Positions 345 through 52,602 of a stretch of DNA of 64,000 nt are shown in pieces. Origin of the DNA: Deltaproteobacteria bacterium (lineage in GTDB: Bacteria > Myxococcota_A > UBA9160 > UBA6930). Within the stretch, counting starts at the first letter, position 1. Each line of letters opens with the position of its first letter. The notes beneath the pieces are model-generated. The model was given only the letters and a program-made list of their open reading frames with translations, was not told the DNA's origin and ran no database searches. The DNA lies in the NCBI GenBank assembly GCA_016875395.1, contig VGRF01000002.1, forward strand, positions 207,815 through 271,814. Reading direction: 5' to 3'. A program made the position numbers and the translations under genes.

Positions 345-1088
345 ATGGCGCAAGTGAAGAAGACTCTGATCGTTACGCGCTTCGATCCCGACAAGGATCA
401 AGCGCCGCGCACGCAGAAGTACGAGATCTCGATCGAGGACGACGCGAAGGTTCTCGACGCGCTGAATCAGATCAAAGACCACGTCGACCCGACGCTCTCG
501 CACCGCTGGTCGTGCCGGATGGCGGTTTGCGGCAGCTGCGGCATGAACGTGAACGGCAAGCCGAAGCTCACCTGCAAGGATCCGATCTCGGCCTACGGCG
601 ACGTCATCGAGGTCACGCCGCTCGCGAGTTTCCCCGTGGTGAAGGACCTCGTCGTCGAGCTCGAAGGCTTCATGGACAAGTTCAAGAAGGTGAAGCCTTG
701 GATCATGGTGGCGAAGGAGCGGGCGGTGGAAGCCGGCCCGACCAAGCAGTCGCCCGACGAGCTCGCCGACTTCAAGCAGTTCAGCATGTGCATCAACTGC
801 ATGCTCTGTTACTCGGCATGCCCCGTCGTCTCGAACGAGCCGGACTTCCTCGGGCCCGCCGCGATCGCGATCGGGCACCGGTACAACCAGGACACGCGCG
901 ACGAAGGCGCGCGTGAGCGCAACGAGATCTTCCGCGACGACGGTGGCGTGTTCTCGTGCTCGTACGCGAACGAGTGCAGCGAGGTCTGCCCGAAGCACGT
1001 CGATCCGTCGGCGGCGATCCAGCAGGCGAAGCTCAACAACGTGCTCGACTGGGCCAAGAGCTTCGTCGTCCCGCGAGGAGGCAAGTGA
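345..1088 (+). CDS. frdB: succinate dehydrogenase/fumarate reductase iron-sulfur subunit
   Basis: 247-aa ORF with three Fe-S cysteine clusters (CRMAVCGSCG, CINCMLCYSACP, CSYANECSEVCP). Confidence 0.9.
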   Translation: MAQVKKTLIVTRFDPDKDQAPRTQKYEISIEDDAKVLDALNQIKDHVDPTLSHRWSCRMAVCGSCGMNVNGKPKLTCKDPISAYGDVIEVTPLASFPVVKDLVVELEGFMDKFKKVKPWIMVAKERAVEAGPTKQSPDELADFKQFSMCINCMLCYSACPVVSNEPDFLGPAAIAIGHRYNQDTRDEGARERNEIFRDDGGVFSCSYANECSEVCPKHVDPSAAIQQAKLNNVLDWAKSFVVPRGGK

Positions 1089-1885: not shown

Positions 1886-3088
1886 ATGGCGAGCAATCCC
1901 GGCAGACCGCTTGCTGGGCTGAGGATTCTCGACCTCACGCGCGTCGTCGCGGGTCCGTTCGCGACCGCGATCTTCGCGGACCTCGGCGCCGAGGTGATCA
2001 AGATCGAGGCGCCGCGCACCGGCGACGACTACCGCGCGGGCCCGTCGCCGCCGGGGCAGACCTCGCTCTCGTTCCAGAACAACAACCGCGGCAAGCGCTC
2101 CATCACGCTCGACGTGCGCACGTCTGAAGGGCGCGAGTTGTTACTGAAGCTCGTCGACCGCGCCGATGCGCTCGTCGAGAACTTCCGCGCGGGCTACCTG
2201 GCGAAGTGCGGCCTCGGCGCGGACGTGCTGCAGGCGCGCAATCCGCGCCTCGTGGTCGCCGCGATCAGCGGCTTCGGGCAGACCGGGCCGCGCGCCGGCG
2301 AGCCGAGCTACGACATCGTCGCGCAGGCGACCGGCGGCCTGCTCGCGATGACGGGCTTCCCCGACGCCACACCCGTTCGCGCAGGCGGCGCCACCGCGGA
2401 CTTCGTGGGCGGCCTCTACCTCGCGCTCGGCGTGGTCGTCGCGCTGCTCGAGCGCGAGCGCACCGGCATTGCACGCGTGCTCGATCTCTCGAACCAAGAC
2501 TGCATCTTCGCGATCGCCGATTCCGCCGCGACGATCTACGCCGGCATCGGCGCGAAGATGGAGCGCGTCGGCAACGCGCACCCGTTCACGTCGCCGTACG
2601 ACTGCTTCGCCACGAGCGACGGCTTCGTCGTAGTGGGCACCGCCAGCAACAAGCTCTTCCGTAAGCTGTGCGAAGGCATCGCGCGCCCCGAGCTCGGGCG
2701 CGACGAGCGCTTCAAGAGCCACCGCATGCGCGCCGCGAACCGGCCCGAGCTCACCGCGATCCTCGCCGCGTGGATGCGCGCGCGCAGCTGTGACGAAGTG
2801 CTCGCCGCGCTCGGCCCGCGCGGCGTCGACGTGCCCGTCGCGCGCGTCTCCTCGCCGCACGAGCTGCTCGATGACCCGCAGCTCGTGGCGCGCGGCATGA
2901 TCGAGCGCCACCCGCACCCGCAGCTCGGCGAGGTCGTGTTCCACGGCAACGCGCTGAAGCTCTCGGGCGCCGTACCGCGCGAGCGCGCGCTCGCGCCGGA
3001 GCTGGGTGAAGCGAACGGGGAAGTGTTCGGCGAGATCGGCGTGACGGCGGGGGAGTTGGCGGGGCTGAGGGAGCGTGGGGTGGTGTGA
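1886..3088 (+). CDS. class III CoA-transferase (CaiB/BaiF family)
   Basis: 400-aa ORF. N-terminal LRILDLTRVVAGPFATAIFADLGAEVIKIE is the family III CoA-transferase signature. Confidence 0.85.
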   Translation: MASNPGRPLAGLRILDLTRVVAGPFATAIFADLGAEVIKIEAPRTGDDYRAGPSPPGQTSLSFQNNNRGKRSITLDVRTSEGRELLLKLVDRADALVENFRAGYLAKCGLGADVLQARNPRLVVAAISGFGQTGPRAGEPSYDIVAQATGGLLAMTGFPDATPVRAGGATADFVGGLYLALGVVVALLERERTGIARVLDLSNQDCIFAIADSAATIYAGIGAKMERVGNAHPFTSPYDCFATSDGFVVVGTASNKLFRKLCEGIARPELGRDERFKSHRMRAANRPELTAILAAWMRARSCDEVLAALGPRGVDVPVARVSSPHELLDDPQLVARGMIERHPHPQLGEVVFHGNALKLSGAVPRERALAPELGEANGEVFGEIGVTAGELAGLRERGVV

Positions 3089-45734: not shown

Positions 45735-47303
45735 ATGAAGCTGTTCGACGACGGCCAGCGGCGCATCGCGGAGGCGCTCTCGAAGCTCACGCACGCGAAC
45801 CCGTTTCTTCCGGAGCGCATCGAGCACGAGCGCGAGGTGCTCGGGGGCGCGTTCGTGCCGGGCCGCGTGGTGTGGAACGTCGACGCCGACCTCGACGGCA
45901 TGAACCCGAACCTCGCGCGCCTCGAGACCACCGCGCGCGAGCTGCTCGCGACCGCGCGCGAGCGCATCCTCGGCGGGCGCAAGCCGAGCGCCGAGGAAGC
46001 CGCGCTCTACGAGGACGTCGTGCTCTATTGCGTCTACGCGCGCTACGAGCGCGAGTGGCGCGCGACGCTCGATCGCGATGCGGAGCGGCCGCGCCCCGTG
46101 GCGGCGTGGGAGGCGTTCGCCGAAGACGTCCAGCGCGACCTCGCGCTGCCCGGTTTCCCGAAGCCCGACGCCGCATTCCTGTTCGCGTACGGCTACCAGA
46201 CGCGCCGCGCCTTCCACTTCGTCTTCCGCCATCTGTACGGCGCCTCGCTGCCCGCGGCGCAGCTGCGTGCGGCGGCGTGGCAGTCGATCTTCTCGCGCGA
46301 TCGCCGCCGCTATCGCCGCGCGCTCGTCGCGCACATGCACGACGTTCCGACGCTCATCACCGGCCCGAGCGGCACCGGCAAAGAGCTCGTCGCGCGCGCG
46401 ATCGGCTGCTCGCAGTTCATCCCCTTCGACGCCGAGGCGAAGGCGTTCGCGCATGCGCCCGAAAAGCGCTTCTTCGCGCTGAACCTCTCGGCGCTCACGC
46501 CCACGCTGATCGAGTCCGAGCTGTTCGGGCACCGCCGCGGCGCGTTCACCGGCGCGGTCGACGATCGCGAGGGCTGGCTCGAAGCCTGCGGCCGCGGCGG
46601 CGCGGTGTTCCTCGACGAGATCGGCGAAGTCTCGCCCGAGATCCAGGTGAAGTTGTTACGGGTGCTGCAGACGCGCAGCTTCGAGCGCCTCGGTGAAACG
46701 CGCGCACGCCGCTTCGACGGCAAGATCGTGGCCGCGACGAATCGCGACATCGCGGCCGAGATGCAGGCCGGCCGCTTCCGCGAAGACTTCTACTACCGCC
46801 TGTGCGCCGACCTCGTGCGCACGCCGAGCCTTCGCGAGCAGCTCGACGACCACCCCGACGACCTGCGCAGCTTCGTCGTGGTGATCGCGCGCCGCCTGTT
46901 CGGCGAAAGCGAAGGCGACGCCGTGGCGCGCGAGGTGCACACGTGGATCGACGCGAACCTGCCGCGCGACTACGCGTGGCCCGGCAACGTGCGCGAGCTC
47001 GAGCAGTGCGTGCGCAACGTCGTGATTCGCGGCGGCTACGCGCCCGCGCTGCCGGCCGCGCGCGCCGCCGGCGTGCCCGCGAGCGGGCCGGTCGCCGAGC
47101 TCGCGGCCGAGCTCGCGCGCGGCAGCACCTCTGCCGACGCGCTGCTCTCGCGCTACGCGACGCTCGTCTACTGGCAAGCCGGCTCGTACGAGGAGACGGC
47201 GCGGCGGATCGGGCTCGATCGCCGAACCGTCAGGGCGCGCATCGATCAGGAGTTCTTGGCGCGGCTGAAGGGATCGGATCAGGGCGAGAAGAGCGAAAGC
47301 TGA
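45735..47303 (+). CDS. sigma-54-dependent transcriptional activator (AAA+ bEBP) without receiver domain
   Basis: Walker A GPSGTGKE, GAFTGA loop, VFLDEIGE, and a C-terminal Fis-type HTH (YEETARRIGLDRRTV). Confidence 0.85.
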   Translation: MKLFDDGQRRIAEALSKLTHANPFLPERIEHEREVLGGAFVPGRVVWNVDADLDGMNPNLARLETTARELLATARERILGGRKPSAEEAALYEDVVLYCVYARYEREWRATLDRDAERPRPVAAWEAFAEDVQRDLALPGFPKPDAAFLFAYGYQTRRAFHFVFRHLYGASLPAAQLRAAAWQSIFSRDRRRYRRALVAHMHDVPTLITGPSGTGKELVARAIGCSQFIPFDAEAKAFAHAPEKRFFALNLSALTPTLIESELFGHRRGAFTGAVDDREGWLEACGRGGAVFLDEIGEVSPEIQVKLLRVLQTRSFERLGETRARRFDGKIVAATNRDIAAEMQAGRFREDFYYRLCADLVRTPSLREQLDDHPDDLRSFVVVIARRLFGESEGDAVAREVHTWIDANLPRDYAWPGNVRELEQCVRNVVIRGGYAPALPAARAAGVPASGPVAELAAELARGSTSADALLSRYATLVYWQAGSYEETARRIGLDRRTVRARIDQEFLARLKGSDQGEKSES

Positions 47304-49345
47304 TCCGCGATCCCCGGTCTCCGGAACGCCGCGGTGGAGAGCTCCGGCCCGCGGCGCGCGAGTCCCGCGCGCTTCAGGCCCAGCGCGAACAGTGCCTCGA
47401 TCTGCGCCGCGAACTCGCCGGCGCCGCGCTGGCGGTGCGCGTAGCGCGAGTCGTAGAGCGCCCCGCCGTGCAGCGAGCGCAGGCGATTCAGCACCTTCTC
47501 GCGGCGCTCGGGGACGTGCTGCGCGAGCCAGTCCGCGAACAGCTCCTTCACGCCGTGCGGCAGGCGCAGCACGACGAAGCCCGCATTCTTCGCGCCCGCG
47601 TTCGCGGCGGCCTGTAGAATCGCAGGCAGCTCGTGATCTGTTAGGCCCGGAATCATCGGCGCCGCCATCACGCCCACGGGTACGCCTGCCTTCGCGAGAG
47701 CCTCGATCGCGGCGAGCCGCTTCGACGGCGGCGACGCGAGCGGTTCCATCTTGCGCTGAAGCTCGGGATCGAGCGTCGTGACCGAGATCATCACCGAAGC
47801 AGCATTGACGCTCGCGAGCTCCGCGAGCACGTCGGCGTCCCGCGTCACGAGGAAACCCTTCGTCACGATGCCGACGGGGTTCTTGAACTCGGCCAGCACC
47901 TCGAGGCAGCCGCGCGTGATGCGCAGGCGTCGCTCCGCGGGCTGATACGGATCCGTCACGCCCGAGAGCGCCACGACCTGCGGCTTCCACGCCGGGGACA
48001 TCAGCTGCTTCCGCAACAACTCGGCGGCGCGCGGCTTCACGAGGATCTTGGTCGAGAAGTCGAGGCCCGCGGAGTAGCCGAGGTATTCGTGCGTGGGGCG
48101 CGCGTAGCAGTTGTGAGTGGCGAGGCCGTTCGCGTAGAAGGTTCGCGTAGAGGTCTGGATGTCGACGACGTCGCGAATCGGCCCTGGCTCGATCGCGGCG
48201 ATCGTCGCGGCGCTTGTTACGGGATCGAGCTCGAAGCAGGCATTGATCTTGCGCTGGATCGCGGGGCGCACGGCAGCGAAGAAGCGCATGCGCTCGCTGA
48301 CCGTGCCCACGAGCCTGGCCGAGCTCGCGTGGTTCTCGCGGGGTTCGAGCTTGAACTTGAAGCCGAGGCTCGCCGCGTAGCGGATCACTCGCTCGAGAAC
48401 GGCCTGATCCAGCTGTGATACGCGAAGCGTCCCGCTGTTGTGCCCCTCTGCGTCGAAGAAGCCCGCGAGCCAGCCTCGACGGAAAGACTCGCTGTCGAGC
48501 TCCGTGCGAATCACCTTCGACACGATCTCGAGCTTCGAAAGCGAGCGAGTCTCGACCTTGAAGAGCGGCTGTCGCGCGGACTTCCCGCCGTCGAAGGGGC
48601 GCAAGAACAGCTCTACGCCGAGGGGGCGCATGAACTCGATGCAGCGTTCGAGAGGCGCGCGATCGATCATTGCGACGCGCCAGTACGCGGCAGGGAAGCC
48701 GAGCTTGTCGCTCCGCCAGCCCGGCTCGTAGCGGAAGGTCCCGTCACCGAGCGACAGGCCCGCGACGTAACCGACTCGGTAGTCCGCATCGAGCGCAACG
48801 CGGGTTGGATTCATTAGGTGGCGGAGCCGCCTTCCGACCTGAAGCTGGGTCGTTCGCGACCAGCGAAACATCCACCACTGCAGCCAGCGGTGCTCAGCTG
48901 TCGTGACGACCTCCGCACGATCAGTCACCACGCGGATCGTCGACTGCCGCGACCACCACACATGCTCCACGACACTATTCCTGAGCTTGCGCGTGTGATG
49001 ACCGTCGGCTGGGAACTCGTCGAGGCCGACGATCTCGTCGCCCGGCTTCAATTCTCCGATCGGGCTCGATGTCATGTCCGCACGGAGAACGGATGTCTCC
49101 GGCTCCAGGCAGTAGCTGCACGCGTGTTGGCAACCCCGATACGGGTTCACGCTGGCGCCGAAGTTCAGGTCGGGGCTGTCGTTGGTGGCGACGATCGTGC
49201 GCGATGGATCCACGAGCAGCTCGGTGCGCGGATCCTCGGGCGGGTCGTCGGGGCTCGGCCCGAAGCCGAGCTCGGGCATGTCGGCGACGTGGACGCGCTC
49301 GAAGCGGTTGGGCGGGTTGGCGAGGGCGCCGGGCGGGGAGGGCAT
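47279..49345 (-). CDS. radical SAM protein (SplB/PA0069-like) interrupted by an intein
   Basis: 688-aa ORF. The exteins ..NPYRGCQHACSY and CYARPTHEYLGY.. together restore the CxxxCxxC motif. Confidence 0.85.
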   Translation of the reverse strand: MPSPPGALANPPNRFERVHVADMPELGFGPSPDDPPEDPRTELLVDPSRTIVATNDSPDLNFGASVNPYRGCQHACSYCLEPETSVLRADMTSSPIGELKPGDEIVGLDEFPADGHHTRKLRNSVVEHVWWSRQSTIRVVTDRAEVVTTAEHRWLQWWMFRWSRTTQLQVGRRLRHLMNPTRVALDADYRVGYVAGLSLGDGTFRYEPGWRSDKLGFPAAYWRVAMIDRAPLERCIEFMRPLGVELFLRPFDGGKSARQPLFKVETRSLSKLEIVSKVIRTELDSESFRRGWLAGFFDAEGHNSGTLRVSQLDQAVLERVIRYAASLGFKFKLEPRENHASSARLVGTVSERMRFFAAVRPAIQRKINACFELDPVTSAATIAAIEPGPIRDVVDIQTSTRTFYANGLATHNCYARPTHEYLGYSAGLDFSTKILVKPRAAELLRKQLMSPAWKPQVVALSGVTDPYQPAERRLRITRGCLEVLAEFKNPVGIVTKGFLVTRDADVLAELASVNAASVMISVTTLDPELQRKMEPLASPPSKRLAAIEALAKAGVPVGVMAAPMIPGLTDHELPAILQAAANAGAKNAGFVVLRLPHGVKELFADWLAQHVPERREKVLNRLRSLHGGALYDSRYAHRQRGAGEFAAQIEALFALGLKRAGLARRGPELSTAAFRRPGIADQLSLFSP
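48110..49111 (-). mobile_element. 334-aa intein with LAGLIDADG homing endonuclease domain
   Basis: Starts CLEPETSVL (block A), has TTAEHRW (block B), carries YVAGLSLGDGTF and WLAGFFDAEGH (LAGLIDADG motifs), and ends FYANGLATHN followed by Cys+1. Visibly lower GC and rare codons. Confidence 0.8.
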
Positions 49346-49415
49346 GAGGCGAATCTACGACGAATCTGTCTAGGCGATCAAGCGCGAAGTCGAAGCCGCG
49401 TGCGCGGGGTGGCGC

Positions 49416-50322
49416 CTAGTCCGCCCACTCCGGCAGGCCACTCGCGCGCAGCGCCTCCAGATCGTGCGAGACCACCACCGTGAAGTCGTCCTCGGCGTCG
49501 AGCGCGGCGAGGTAGCGCCGCAGCTGCTCGGTGCGGCGCGTGTCTTCCGGCACGAGCAGGCCGCTGTAGAGGAAGCCCTTGCCGCGATTGGCGAGCAGCG
49601 CCTCGCGCGTGTTGGTGATGTCGCCGGACAGGATCCAGACGTGGTTGCCCACGGCGAACGCGAACATCGTCGAGCACGCCGTGTGCCCGCCGAGCGGAAT
49701 CAGCGCCGTGCCCGGGAACGCGGCGAGCGTGAGCAGGCCCTCGTCTCCCGCGCTCGTCGCTTCGAAGCACGAGCTTTCGACTAGCGCAGCGCCTTCCGCG
49801 GTGTTCGGGTCGCGCAGCGTCGCCTGCGGACTCCCCCTGATACACGCGCGCGCCGGGCGCCGGCCCGGCCGCGCACAGCGCCTCGATGCCCTGCGTGTGA
49901 TCGATGTGCAGATGCGTGAAGCCGAGGCCGCGCACGCGCGCGACCGCGCTGCCGATCTGCTCGGACACCGTGCCGTGCGGCGTCACCTGCCCGCCGCCCG
50001 AGAGCGTGCCTAACAACTCGCCGAACTCGACGGCGGCTGCGGCATCCATGCCCGCGTCGACCTCGAACAGCGAGCCATCGGGCCACTCGGCGAGAAACAC
50101 CGAGTGCGCGATGACGCCGCGCGCGAGCGGCTGCGAGGAGGTGTTGATCCAGCGCAGCGAGCGCGGACCGCCGGGAGCGCTCGTCAGCGAGCGCAGCTCC
50201 TCCGCGCTGGGAAGCCGCGGCGCGACCCGGCGGATCTGCAGGTGAGCGGGAACGATGCGCAGAGCGAGCGCGGCGAGTGCGAGCAAGGGCAGGGCGGCGG
50301 CGATGCGAAGTGCCCAGCGCAT
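49416..50322 (-). pseudogene. MBL-fold metallo-hydrolase broken by a 1-nt frameshift in a C5/G5 run
   Basis: The N-terminal ORF (THLHIDHTQG motif) turns to noise after ..GARVYQG. The C-terminal part (SPQATLRDPNTAEG...MFAFAVGNHVWILSGD...) continues in the +1 frame. Junction at the homopolymer 49833-49837. Confidence 0.65.
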
Positions 50323-50337
50323 GGCGAGAGCTGCTCC

Positions 50338-52602
50338 TTACGCCCGCTCGATCCTCGCTCTTACGTGCTTGTGCCACGGCGTGCCCGCGATCCAGTCGCG
50401 GTCCTCGCTCGCGGTGAGCTCGTTCGGCGCGACGCCCGTCGTGCGCGAGCCCTCGGCGCCGCCGGGGTAGTGGAGGCCGAGGCCGTTGGGCAGCGTCGCG
50501 TGGCCGGGCAGCAGCGTGTCCGTCACCTCCACCTCCGCGACGCCTTCGCCGCGCTTCGTGGTGATGCGCGCGCGGGCGCCGCTCGCGAGGCCGAGGCGCG
50601 CGGCGTCCTCGGGGTTCATGCGCAGCGCGCCTGCCGCGTCCTTCGTGCGCCACGCGGGGTCGCGCACGATCGTGTTCGCGGTGCTGGTGCGCCGCTCGCC
50701 GGCCGCGAGCACGAACGGGTAGGCGTCGTCGCGCGCGGGCCGCTCGTCGCGCAGCGCGCGCAACTCGCCTAACAGCTCCGGGATCGCGAGGTGCGCCCGG
50801 CGGCCGTCGTGCGTGACGCGGCTCCACGAGTCGGCGTGCTCGTCCGCCGTGAACACGACTCCGCTGCGCTCGCGCAGGATCGCGTCGAACAGCGCGAGGC
50901 CCTGCTCGATCGGGTTCGCGCCTGCGAAGCCCGCGCGCCGCACCGAGTCCGGGTACTCCTGCGCGCACTGGATCGCGAGCGCCGCGAGCGCCGCGGCGTT
51001 CGCGGCGCCGTCCGGCAGCGTGGGCCCGAGCGTCTCGTACATCACCACGGGCGCGACCTGCGCGAACTTCGGGCTCTTCGCGAGCGCTCCGAGCAGCGCG
51101 ACGGCGTACTGCGCGCGGCCCTGCCTCGCGGCCTCGTGCAGCGGCGCCACGTCCTCGTCTCCGTAACAACCGAGCGCGCGCACGAGGCGGCGGTGAATCT
51201 CGGCCTCGACGAGCGTTCCCGGCGCGGGCTCGAACAACGGCGCGCGCAGGTGGAACACGTTCTTCGGGAACTCGAAGTTGAAGAAGGTCGCCTCCCACTT
51301 CTCGAGCTGCGACGCCGCGGGCAGCACCCAGTGCGCGAGGCGCGCCGTCTCCGTCATCGCGACGTCGATCACCACGACGCACTCGAGCGCGGCGATCGCC
51401 TCGCGCATGCGAGCGCTGTCCGCGAGCGAGTGCGCGGGGTTGCCGCTCTCGACGAGCAGCGCGCGGAAGCGCTGCGGGTGATCCGTGAGGATCTCTTCCG
51501 GAATCGCGTTGCAGGGCATGATGCCGCCGATCACGCGCGCGCCCGTCACCGCCGTCTTGCGCTCGCTGCTCTTGCCGATCAGCGCGCCGAAGTGCGTGTG
51601 CAGGTTCATCGCGCCGGGCTTCGCGAAGTTGCCCGTCAGCAGCCACGCGAGCTTCTCGAGGTACGAGTTGAGCGTCGAGTGCGGCGCCATCTGCACGCCG
51701 AGGTCTTCGAGGATCGACACGCTCGCCGCGCGCCCGATGCGCCGCGCGACTTCGCGCAGCGTGCTCTCCTCGACCCCGGCGCGCGCGCAGTAGTCCGCGA
51801 TCGGCACCTCGGCGAGCGCGGCCAGCACTTCGTCTGCGCCCACCGTGCGCGCGGCGAGGAATTCGCGGTCGATGAGATCTTCACTCGCGAGGATCGCGAG
51901 CAGCGCGGCCAGCAGGAACGCGTCGCAGCCGGGCTTCACCCGCAGGTGGAAGTCGGCGAGCTCCGCGGTCTCGGTGCGGCGCGGATCGATCACGACGAGC
52001 GTGCGCTCCGGATCGCGCGCGATTTCCTTCAGCACGATGCGCGCGCGCGGGAAGCCGTGCGACTGCCACGGGTTCTTCCCTAACAACACCGCGACTTCGG
52101 CGTGCTCGAAGTCCGGCGTCGAGTGGCAGTTGGGCCGCCCGAACAGCTTGCCGTCCACCCAGAACTCGCCCGTCTTCTCCTGCGCGAGCGCGTTCGACGC
52201 GTACACGTAGCCGACCGCTGCGCGCGTCGCGCGCCCGTAGCCGCCGGGTAGGTGGTTGCCCTGGCCGCCGCCGCCGTAGTAGAGGATCGACGCGCCGCCG
52301 TGCGTGTCGCGCACGCGCGCGAGGTCGCGCGCCACGCCCGCGATCGCGACATCCCAGCTCACCGCCTCGAACGTGCCGTCCGCGCGCCGGCGCAGCGGCG
52401 ACGTGAGGCGATCGCGCCCGTTCTGATAGGCGTCGAGCCCGCGCGCCGGCTTCTCGCACGTGTAGCCCTGAGACGCGGGGTGCGCGCGATCGCCGCGCAT
52501 CTTCACGACGCGGCGGCCGTCGGTCTGCACCTCGAGTCCGCAGTTGAGGCTGCACAGAATGCACGCGGACTTCTGCCAGCGTGATGCATCGGCGTTCGGC
52601 AT
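50338..52602 (-). CDS. molybdopterin (bis-MGD) oxidoreductase catalytic subunit
   Basis: 754 aa. N-terminal 4Fe-4S motif CILCSLNCGLEV..C, plus molybdopterin-binding and C-terminal dinucleotide-binding regions. Confidence 0.85.
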   Translation of the reverse strand: MPNADASRWQKSACILCSLNCGLEVQTDGRRVVKMRGDRAHPASQGYTCEKPARGLDAYQNGRDRLTSPLRRRADGTFEAVSWDVAIAGVARDLARVRDTHGGASILYYGGGGQGNHLPGGYGRATRAAVGYVYASNALAQEKTGEFWVDGKLFGRPNCHSTPDFEHAEVAVLLGKNPWQSHGFPRARIVLKEIARDPERTLVVIDPRRTETAELADFHLRVKPGCDAFLLAALLAILASEDLIDREFLAARTVGADEVLAALAEVPIADYCARAGVEESTLREVARRIGRAASVSILEDLGVQMAPHSTLNSYLEKLAWLLTGNFAKPGAMNLHTHFGALIGKSSERKTAVTGARVIGGIMPCNAIPEEILTDHPQRFRALLVESGNPAHSLADSARMREAIAALECVVVIDVAMTETARLAHWVLPAASQLEKWEATFFNFEFPKNVFHLRAPLFEPAPGTLVEAEIHRRLVRALGCYGDEDVAPLHEAARQGRAQYAVALLGALAKSPKFAQVAPVVMYETLGPTLPDGAANAAALAALAIQCAQEYPDSVRRAGFAGANPIEQGLALFDAILRERSGVVFTADEHADSWSRVTHDGRRAHLAIPELLGELRALRDERPARDDAYPFVLAAGERRTSTANTIVRDPAWRTKDAAGALRMNPEDAARLGLASGARARITTKRGEGVAEVEVTDTLLPGHATLPNGLGLHYPGGAEGSRTTGVAPNELTASEDRDWIAGTPWHKHVRARIERA

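Follow-up and report, generated by a model that had tools for sequence, protein, structure and literature searches.

A probable LAGLIDADG intein within the iron-sulfur cluster motif of a PA0069-family radical SAM protein from a Myxococcota-like bacterium

We analyzed a 64,000-nucleotide stretch of DNA (contig VGRF01000002.1, positions 207,815 to 271,814 of the forward strand; hereafter, the window) from an assembly labeled Deltaproteobacteria bacterium, in which a gene on the minus strand encodes a radical S-adenosylmethionine (SAM) protein interrupted by a putative intein. An earlier reading of the DNA (the original prediction) had placed a 334-amino-acid (aa) insert at 48110-49111, within a 688-aa open reading frame (ORF); translation showed that these coordinates and both junctions are exact. 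The gene and the parts of the insert are laid out as follows.

47279..49345, minus strand: gene of the PA0069-family radical SAM precursor with its intein, 688 aa plus stop (ORF list, NF033668)
49112..49345, minus strand: N-extein, residues 1-78, ending in ...NPYRGC72QHAC76SY78 (translation and alignments)
48110..49111, minus strand: intein, 334 aa, protein residues 79-412, with a Hint domain split around a LAGLIDADG endonuclease
49109..49111, minus strand: codon of Cys1 (C79), the block A nucleophile, forming C-S-Y-C with C76; invariant in 118/118 sequences
48884..48904, minus strand: block B, TTAEHRW (TxxH: T149, H152); H152 invariant, T149 at least 90% conserved
48242..48796, minus strand: LAGLIDADG homing endonuclease domain, about intein residues 106-290
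48734..48769, minus strand: LAGLIDADG motif 1, YVAGLSLGDGTF, acidic residue D201; G196 and T203 invariant, G200, D201 and G202 at least 90% conserved
48440..48472, minus strand: LAGLIDADG motif 2, WLAGFFDAEGH, acidic residue E300; G295, F296, F297, D298 and A299 invariant, E300 and G301 at least 90% conserved
48110..48169, minus strand: blocks F and G, VVDIQTSTRTFYANGLATHN (D395, H411, terminal N412)
47279..48109, minus strand: C-extein, residues 413-688 plus stop, starting with C413 and then YARPTHEYLGY

At the N-junction, ...NPYRGCQHACSY is followed by CLEPETSVL..., and at the C-junction ...FYANGLATHN is followed by CYARPTHEYLGY. The first two cluster cysteines, C72 and C76, belong to the N-extein, with C76 at position -3 relative to the intein, and C413 (+1) has a double role, as the splice nucleophile and as the third cluster ligand. 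Removal of the insert had been predicted to recreate a C-x3-C-x2-C motif, and the 354-aa product spliced in silico indeed reads CQHACSYCYA, a contiguous C72-x3-C76-x2-C cluster loop. The radical SAM nature of the host was likewise borne out. The spliced product matched NCBIfam NF033668 (PA0069 family radical SAM; curated cut-off of 360 bits) contiguously over model positions 4-348 of 348, with 460 bits compared to 441 bits for the precursor, and Pfam PF04055 (Radical_SAM) gave one unbroken match to residues 66-244 of this product, with 75 bits. In a profile search of the PDB, the closest solved structure to the host was SkfB. PA0069, a radical SAM family of unknown function, belongs to COG1533, with the database label "DNA repair photolyase / SplB"; source annotations currently list its proteins under "DNA repair photolyase" or simply as PA0069, and the gene would be better named an intein-containing PA0069-family radical SAM protein.

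Conservation was assessed in two alignments of intein-bearing homologues, one of 62 sequences (A1) and one of 118 sequences (117 homologues). The hallmarks named in the original prediction, i.e., Cys1, TTAEHRW, the terminal His-Asn and the +1 cysteine, are all present, and C79, H152, D392, D395, I396, H411, N412 and C413 are invariant across the 62 sequences. The same alignment has C72, H74, C76 and Y78 of the N-extein invariant (Y78 in 117/118 sequences of the larger one), together with A415, R416, P417, H419 and E420 of the C-extein. Across the 117 homologues, the splice residues and both acidic residues of the endonuclease are conserved or nearly so. In addition, the intein part of NCBIfam NF038136 was aligned to all 334 residues of the insert, with 61 bits.

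The two predicted LAGLIDADG motifs were located as listed above, with their helices ending in the metal-binding acidic residues (VAGLSLGD201G and LAGFFDAE300G). Two Pfam endonuclease models scored above their cut-offs, Hom_end (PF05204) with 27.4 bits (cut-off 21.1) and LAGLIDADG_3 (PF14528) with 23.9 bits (cut-off 22.5), both matches beginning at motif 2. A direct sequence search of the PDB with the intein gave only a weak match to PI-PfuI (1dq3), E 0.06; therefore, profile and structure searches were needed. PI-PfuI, PI-SceI and I-DmoI were all recovered by sequence in the profile search. For the precursor, an AlphaFold2 model was built on 62 homologues; its mean predicted local distance difference test score (pLDDT) is 83, and most of the intein exceeds 85. 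Hint strands occur at residues 85-176 and 378-411, and the alpha/beta elements of the endonuclease domain at 187-368. When this model was compared to the PDB using Foldseek, PI-PfuI (E 7e-13) and PI-SceI were retrieved with E-values ranging from 7e-13 to 1e-10, the Ssp DnaB mini-intein with template modeling (TM) scores of 0.74-0.79, and I-DmoI with TM scores of 0.62-0.70 over approximately 180-205 alignment columns.

Taken together, these results make it very probable that the insert is a true intein of class 1, carrying a predicted functional two-motif LAGLIDADG homing endonuclease, lying between Tyr78 and the third ligand cysteine of a PA0069-family (COG1533) radical SAM protein; splicing of this intein and cleavage of DNA by it are what we infer. 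Under standard intein chemistry, Cys79 would attack the carbonyl of Tyr78 in an N-S acyl shift aided by T149 and H152, the N-extein would be passed to Cys413 by trans-thioesterification, cyclization of Asn412, aided by H411, would free the intein, and an S-N shift would then produce a normal peptide bond. The expected product is the 354-aa enzyme, with a contiguous C72-x3-C76-x2-C loop able to hold the SAM-binding [4Fe-4S] cluster. The freed 334-aa intein would act as a site-specific endonuclease on intein-less alleles, with a predicted cut across ...TGC AGC TAC/TGC TAC GCG CGC CCC... (here and below, a slash marks the insertion point), and repair would copy the intein into the cut allele (homing). 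With a GC-rich target of this kind, the endonuclease is also a candidate for a new rare-cutting enzyme.

The distribution of the intein among homologues was examined next to its anatomy. A search with the full protein returned more than 100 clusters of intein-bearing PA0069 proteins of 680-730 aa, with 56-87% identity; full-length inteins are found, for example, at loci L001, L019 and L030. Mini-inteins of roughly 110-160 aa occupy the same site at loci L006, L062 and L064 and in protein P0211 (494 aa, encoded on a 3.0-Mb NCBI contig); in all four, the N- and C-terminal parts of Hint are kept and the whole endonuclease domain is lost. A scan of species-representative genomes revealed the uninterrupted motif NPYRGC-x-H-x-C-x-Y-C-[YF]-AR at 53 loci, versus approximately 10 occupied ones. 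The original prediction had proposed alignment with intein-free homologues as a check, and these 53 loci show that the 334 aa are not a conserved host domain. In the closest empty alleles, with 88% extein identity, exactly 334 aa are missing: L003 reads CQHACTYCYARPTHEYLGY and L004 reads CAHGCSYCYARPTHEYLGY. The spread among close relatives is sporadic, in that exteins 88% identical lack the intein and others 84-92% identical carry it. Full, mini and empty alleles occur side by side, as a homing cycle would predict.

The same site in PA0069 genes also harbors a second, full-length intein lineage, approximately 30% identical, at loci L028 (Gemmatimonadota) and L060 (Haliangiales), at about 1961-3000 in each. 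These inteins start with CVSGDT or CISGDT, end with SHN, and are more similar to the actinobacterial inteins of the Rv2578c family than to that of the window. Protein P0147 (494 aa) consists of a PA0069 N-extein and an intein that breaks off past the second LAGLIDADG motif, followed by a DDE_3 (IS630-like) transposase domain; an insertion sequence seems to have disrupted the intein here, unless the gene call is chimeric.

At the empty sites of L003 and L004, codons -2, -1 and +1 read A[CG]T TAT TGT, all ending in T, although the GC content of third codon positions (GC3) is 0.86-0.92; the corresponding junction codons in the window are AGC TAC/TGC. The T-ending codons could confer resistance to the endonuclease, and the two loci may share ancestry. 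As a general effect, synonymous "immunizing" changes were rejected, with T-ending codons at 25% in 27 high-GC3 empty alleles compared to a background of 19% (Fisher p = 0.25).

The original prediction had also taken a lower GC content and rare codons as marks of a mobile origin. The dip itself is real: the intein has a GC content of 64.6% and a GC3 of 82%, compared to 70-71% and 90-92% for the exteins, which places it in the lowest 0.6% of 1-kb windows across the 64-kb stretch (mean 70.9%, standard deviation 2.3%). Codons ending in A or T are more frequent in the intein (60/334) than in the exteins (34/354; Fisher p = 0.002), as in CTA ATG AAT CCA at 48806-48817. However, the orthologous inteins of L001, L019 and L030 show the same offset of 5-7 percentage points; therefore, the offset is a lasting property of the element, and we rejected the dip as evidence that the intein entered this genome recently.

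The ratio of nonsynonymous to synonymous substitution rates (dN/dS) was 0.11-0.13 for the endonuclease domain, 0.14-0.15 for the whole intein and 0.11-0.17 for the C-extein, which indicates that the endonuclease domain is under purifying selection. Column conservation follows the same pattern, with 0.73 for the intein, 0.72 for the endonuclease domain and 0.67-0.74 for the exteins. The synonymous rate (dS) between the window and L001, L019 and L030 was 1.06-1.23 for the intein versus 0.45-0.47 for the adjacent C-extein; this excess could reflect independent histories of the inteins or merely a stronger codon bias in the exteins. The identity of the inteins tracks that of the exteins (r = 0.81), and much of the history within the intein clade may have been vertical.

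It should be noted that several results weigh against a splicing and actively homing intein. Among the profile searches suggested originally, the LAGLIDADG models and the intein part of NF038136 gave matches, and Pfam Intein_splicing (PF14890) had no match to the intein at E <= 1; the same model matches 23/72 of its relatives. The co-variation of intein and extein identities would be explained by a long period of vertical inheritance no less well than by frequent homing. A role beneficial to the host, in place of homing, could also account for the purifying selection on the endonuclease domain. Finally, a transfer vector was not identified: a tblastn search of 50,697 phage records gave, among the matches listed, only distant inteins of approximately 28% identity, in mycobacteriophage terminase-like genes, and a scan of IMG/VR contained no relative of the intein above 32% identity.

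Inteins at this site have already been catalogued in a sister family of COG1533. Table 1 of Novikova et al. 2016 lists 48 inteins in COG1533 "SplB" proteins, for this host class in Actinobacteria only (PMC4760082), and NCBIfam NF038136 is the model for an intein-containing Rv2578c family radical SAM protein. The Rv2578c inteins share with that of the window the COG1533 host branch, and in P0365, L069 and L071, as in P0352, the junction likewise lies just before the third cysteine of GC-x-H-x-C-x-Y/C-[YF]-AR. For P0365, a member of NF038136 with 815 bits, the junctions read GCSHSCVY/C...SHN/CFARNTHTY, i.e., the same site; its intein, also of the LAGLIDADG type, is homologous to that of the window, with approximately 33% identity over the full length (E ~5e-28). 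However, the host in the window belongs to the PA0069 subfamily (NF033668) and scores 324 bits with NF038136, below the 700-bit cut-off, so that by these scores it is a sister case of NF038136 and not a member. In contrast to the listed actinobacterial inteins, the organism is Myxococcota-like, and the intein sequence has strongly diverged. Beyond Actinobacteria, the catalogued range of COG1533 ("SplB") inteins now takes in Myxococcota, Gemmatimonadota and other phyla. A literature search on inteins combined with radical SAM, SplB, DUF5131 or CxxxCxxC found no paper that places the intein insertion inside the cluster motif; the only mention was the entry in Table 1 of PMC4760082.

Among inteins of solved structure, PI-PfuI (archaeal ribonucleotide reductase) and PI-SceI (yeast VMA1) are the best structural matches, PI-PfuI (1dq3) also being the best PDB match by sequence; in both, as in the window, Hint is split by a two-motif LAGLIDADG endonuclease. 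However, they are only 12-16% identical to it, with unrelated hosts and target sites, and the intein of the window is smaller (334 aa versus approximately 454) and shows no sign of an additional region for DNA recognition.

Relatives of the intein were collected in an exhaustive phmmer search, which returned 2472 cluster representatives below E 1e-3, 917 of them below 1e-10 and 116 below 1e-30; junctions were extracted from 100 representative full-length relatives. The features shared at these junctions were counted as follows.

Cys1: 97/100 relatives
Terminal His-Asn: 98/100 relatives
Cys at +1: 99/100 relatives
Aromatic residue at +2: 82/100 relatives
Cys at -3: 79/100 relatives
Site in CxxxCxx/C: 43/100 relatives
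Site in C-x5-8-C-xx/C: 22/100 relatives

Thus, 65 of the 100 relatives lie in a tri-cysteine motif of the radical SAM type. Host families were assigned using Pfam for 72 relatives: DUF5131 (phage Gp37/Gp68) in 21/72, Radical_SAM in 20/72 (6 of them with a B12-binding domain), PD-(D/E)XK nucleases in 5/72, DUF1848 in 2/72, the DnaG CHC2 zinc ribbon in 2/72, and SPL and SPASM in 1/72 each; helicase domains also occur among the hosts. Relatives 31-50% identical over the full length are found just before a metal-ligand cysteine in several unrelated families, e.g., DUF5131 (P0137, P0158 and P0189), DUF1848 (P0166 and P0239), B12-binding radical SAM proteins (P0251 and P0313), Cas4/RecB-like proteins with C-x2-C-x5-C (P0320 and P0361) and the CHC2 zinc finger of primase (P0290), as well as at loci L102 and L103. 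Compared as DNA, the sites of different host families have no more than a short core in common, TGC nnn yAy/TGC TAy GCs.

From these junctions, there appears to be one intein clade specialized on metal-ligand cysteine motifs, for which the third cluster cysteine of radical SAM-type motifs is a recurrent landing site. Inteins as a rule sit in conserved functional motifs, and the preference of the clade fits this rule; we found no description in the literature of a clade preference for radical SAM cluster motifs. It should also be mentioned that P0137, with a DUF5131 host, matches TIGR04471 ("radical SAM mobile pair protein A") and that COG1533 hosts (P0365) match TIGR04470 ("mobile pair protein B"); therefore, both main host families of the clade have relatives that move together, as a pair, on mobile elements.

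The original prediction further held that the host cannot bind its cluster until splicing has occurred. The unspliced precursor, however, also reads CxxxCxxC (C72-x3-C76-x2-C79), with Cys1 of the intein replacing the third ligand; because Cys1 mimics this ligand, a failure of the precursor to bind the cluster is not evident from the sequence. The precursor model has low confidence at residues 71-75 and 415-428 and, thus, cannot decide cluster binding by the precursor. By analogy with other inteins, it is nonetheless plausible that splicing would gate the activity of the host enzyme.

MoaA likewise belongs to the radical SAM enzymes and has a CxxxCxxC motif; the intein of Pyrococcus abyssi MoaA is probably inserted at the equivalent cysteine. 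According to PMC3922620 and PMC10663303 (the latter citing Callahan et al. 2011), a native disulfide between Cys-3 and Cys1 of this intein blocks splicing until it is reduced, and this redox control is interpreted as protecting an oxygen-sensitive enzyme. The intein of the window resembles this case in having an oxygen-sensitive host enzyme and a C-x-x-C formed by Cys-3 and Cys1 across the N-junction; it differs in the host enzyme and the domain of life, and redox control, demonstrated for MoaA, would here be a prediction from the sequence arrangement. The SufB intein of Mycobacterium tuberculosis, one of the stress-sensing inteins reviewed in PMC10663303, also has an iron-sulfur-related host, and its splicing may respond to oxidative conditions. 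However, SufB is a cluster-assembly scaffold with the intein outside any cluster-ligand motif.

By this analogy, the intein might be conditional, with the redox or metal state gating its splicing and, hence, the maturation of an oxygen-labile radical SAM enzyme; either a Cys76 (-3)/Cys79 disulfide would block the first splicing step until conditions become reducing, or the thiols of C72, C76, C79 and C413 would bind zinc or an iron-sulfur cluster and block splicing. Such control would add to the behavior of a selfish element and need not replace it. In its favor, the cysteine at -3 is invariant and forms CSYC with Cys1, a cysteine occupies this position in most of the 100 representative relatives, the endonuclease and splicing domains are conserved as strongly as the host, and the native Cys-3/Cys1 disulfide of P. 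abyssi MoaA offers a precedent. Conversely, Cys-3 is set by the host cluster motif equally in intein-free alleles; therefore, its presence is uninformative on selection for a redox trap. Furthermore, most species-representative members of the family are empty; therefore, the host does not need the intein. We consider a conditional intein possible but, on this balance, unlikely. An extension of the same idea, in which Cys(-3)-x-x-Cys1, together with Cys+1 and the first motif cysteine, would form a redox- or metal-sensing site in precursors and would make the splicing of many enzymes of the radical SAM type depend on reducing conditions or on iron-sulfur/zinc supply, as a post-translational checkpoint across the superfamily, is more doubtful still. 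In any case, the combination of full, mini and empty alleles with invariant Cys-3, Cys1 and Cys+1 makes a natural test bed for intein gating of oxygen-labile iron-sulfur enzymes, of the kind proposed for P. abyssi MoaA.

A different possibility is that the intein splices and its endonuclease no longer homes, so that the element persists by vertical inheritance and its loss needs a precise deletion. The co-variation of intein and extein identities and the GC offset common to orthologous inteins are in line with this, and the mini-inteins show that the endonuclease is dispensable for persistence. However, a dead enzyme should drift, whereas the endonuclease domain has the low dN/dS given above and at least 90% of homologues retain the two catalytic acidic residues; the sporadic distribution among close relatives also argues against a non-homing element, which we therefore regard as improbable. 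That the insert is a dead insertion, a pseudogene or a non-intein host domain has next to no chance of being correct, the missing PF14890 match being its sole support, since the catalytic splice residues are all invariant, the exteins are under purifying selection, the model shows Hint and LAGLIDADG folds, and the exact absence of the whole 334 aa from intein-free homologues effectively refutes it.

The locus, which encodes the probable class 1 intein with a predicted homing endonuclease, is chromosomal and syntenic with relatives, with a molybdopterin oxidoreductase gene upstream and a convergent sigma-54 activator gene downstream in both the window and L001; the nearest genome records are metagenome-assembled genomes of uncultured Myxococcota/"Deltaproteobacteria". 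A scan of 46900-50500 found no promoter or terminator. The radical SAM gene (minus strand) and the sigma-54-dependent activator gene at 45735-47303 (plus strand) share 25 nucleotides (47279-47303) at their 3' ends, and L001 has the same convergent arrangement of the two genes. Just upstream of the radical SAM gene lies a metallo-beta-lactamase-fold gene at 49416-50322 (minus strand), apparently frameshifted: the N-terminal part, with the motif HLHIDHTQG, is read in the frame of ORF 49378-50322, and a plausible C-terminal part (...FTVVVSHDLEALRASGLPEWAD) in that of ORF 49416-49667; the gene would be either a pseudogene or affected by a sequencing error. Elsewhere in the window, only positions 1-1400 are as GC-poor as the intein (approximately 64-65%); the ORF there at 345-1088 (plus strand) has, as read from its sequence, cysteine motifs characteristic of succinate dehydrogenase/fumarate reductase iron-sulfur subunits.

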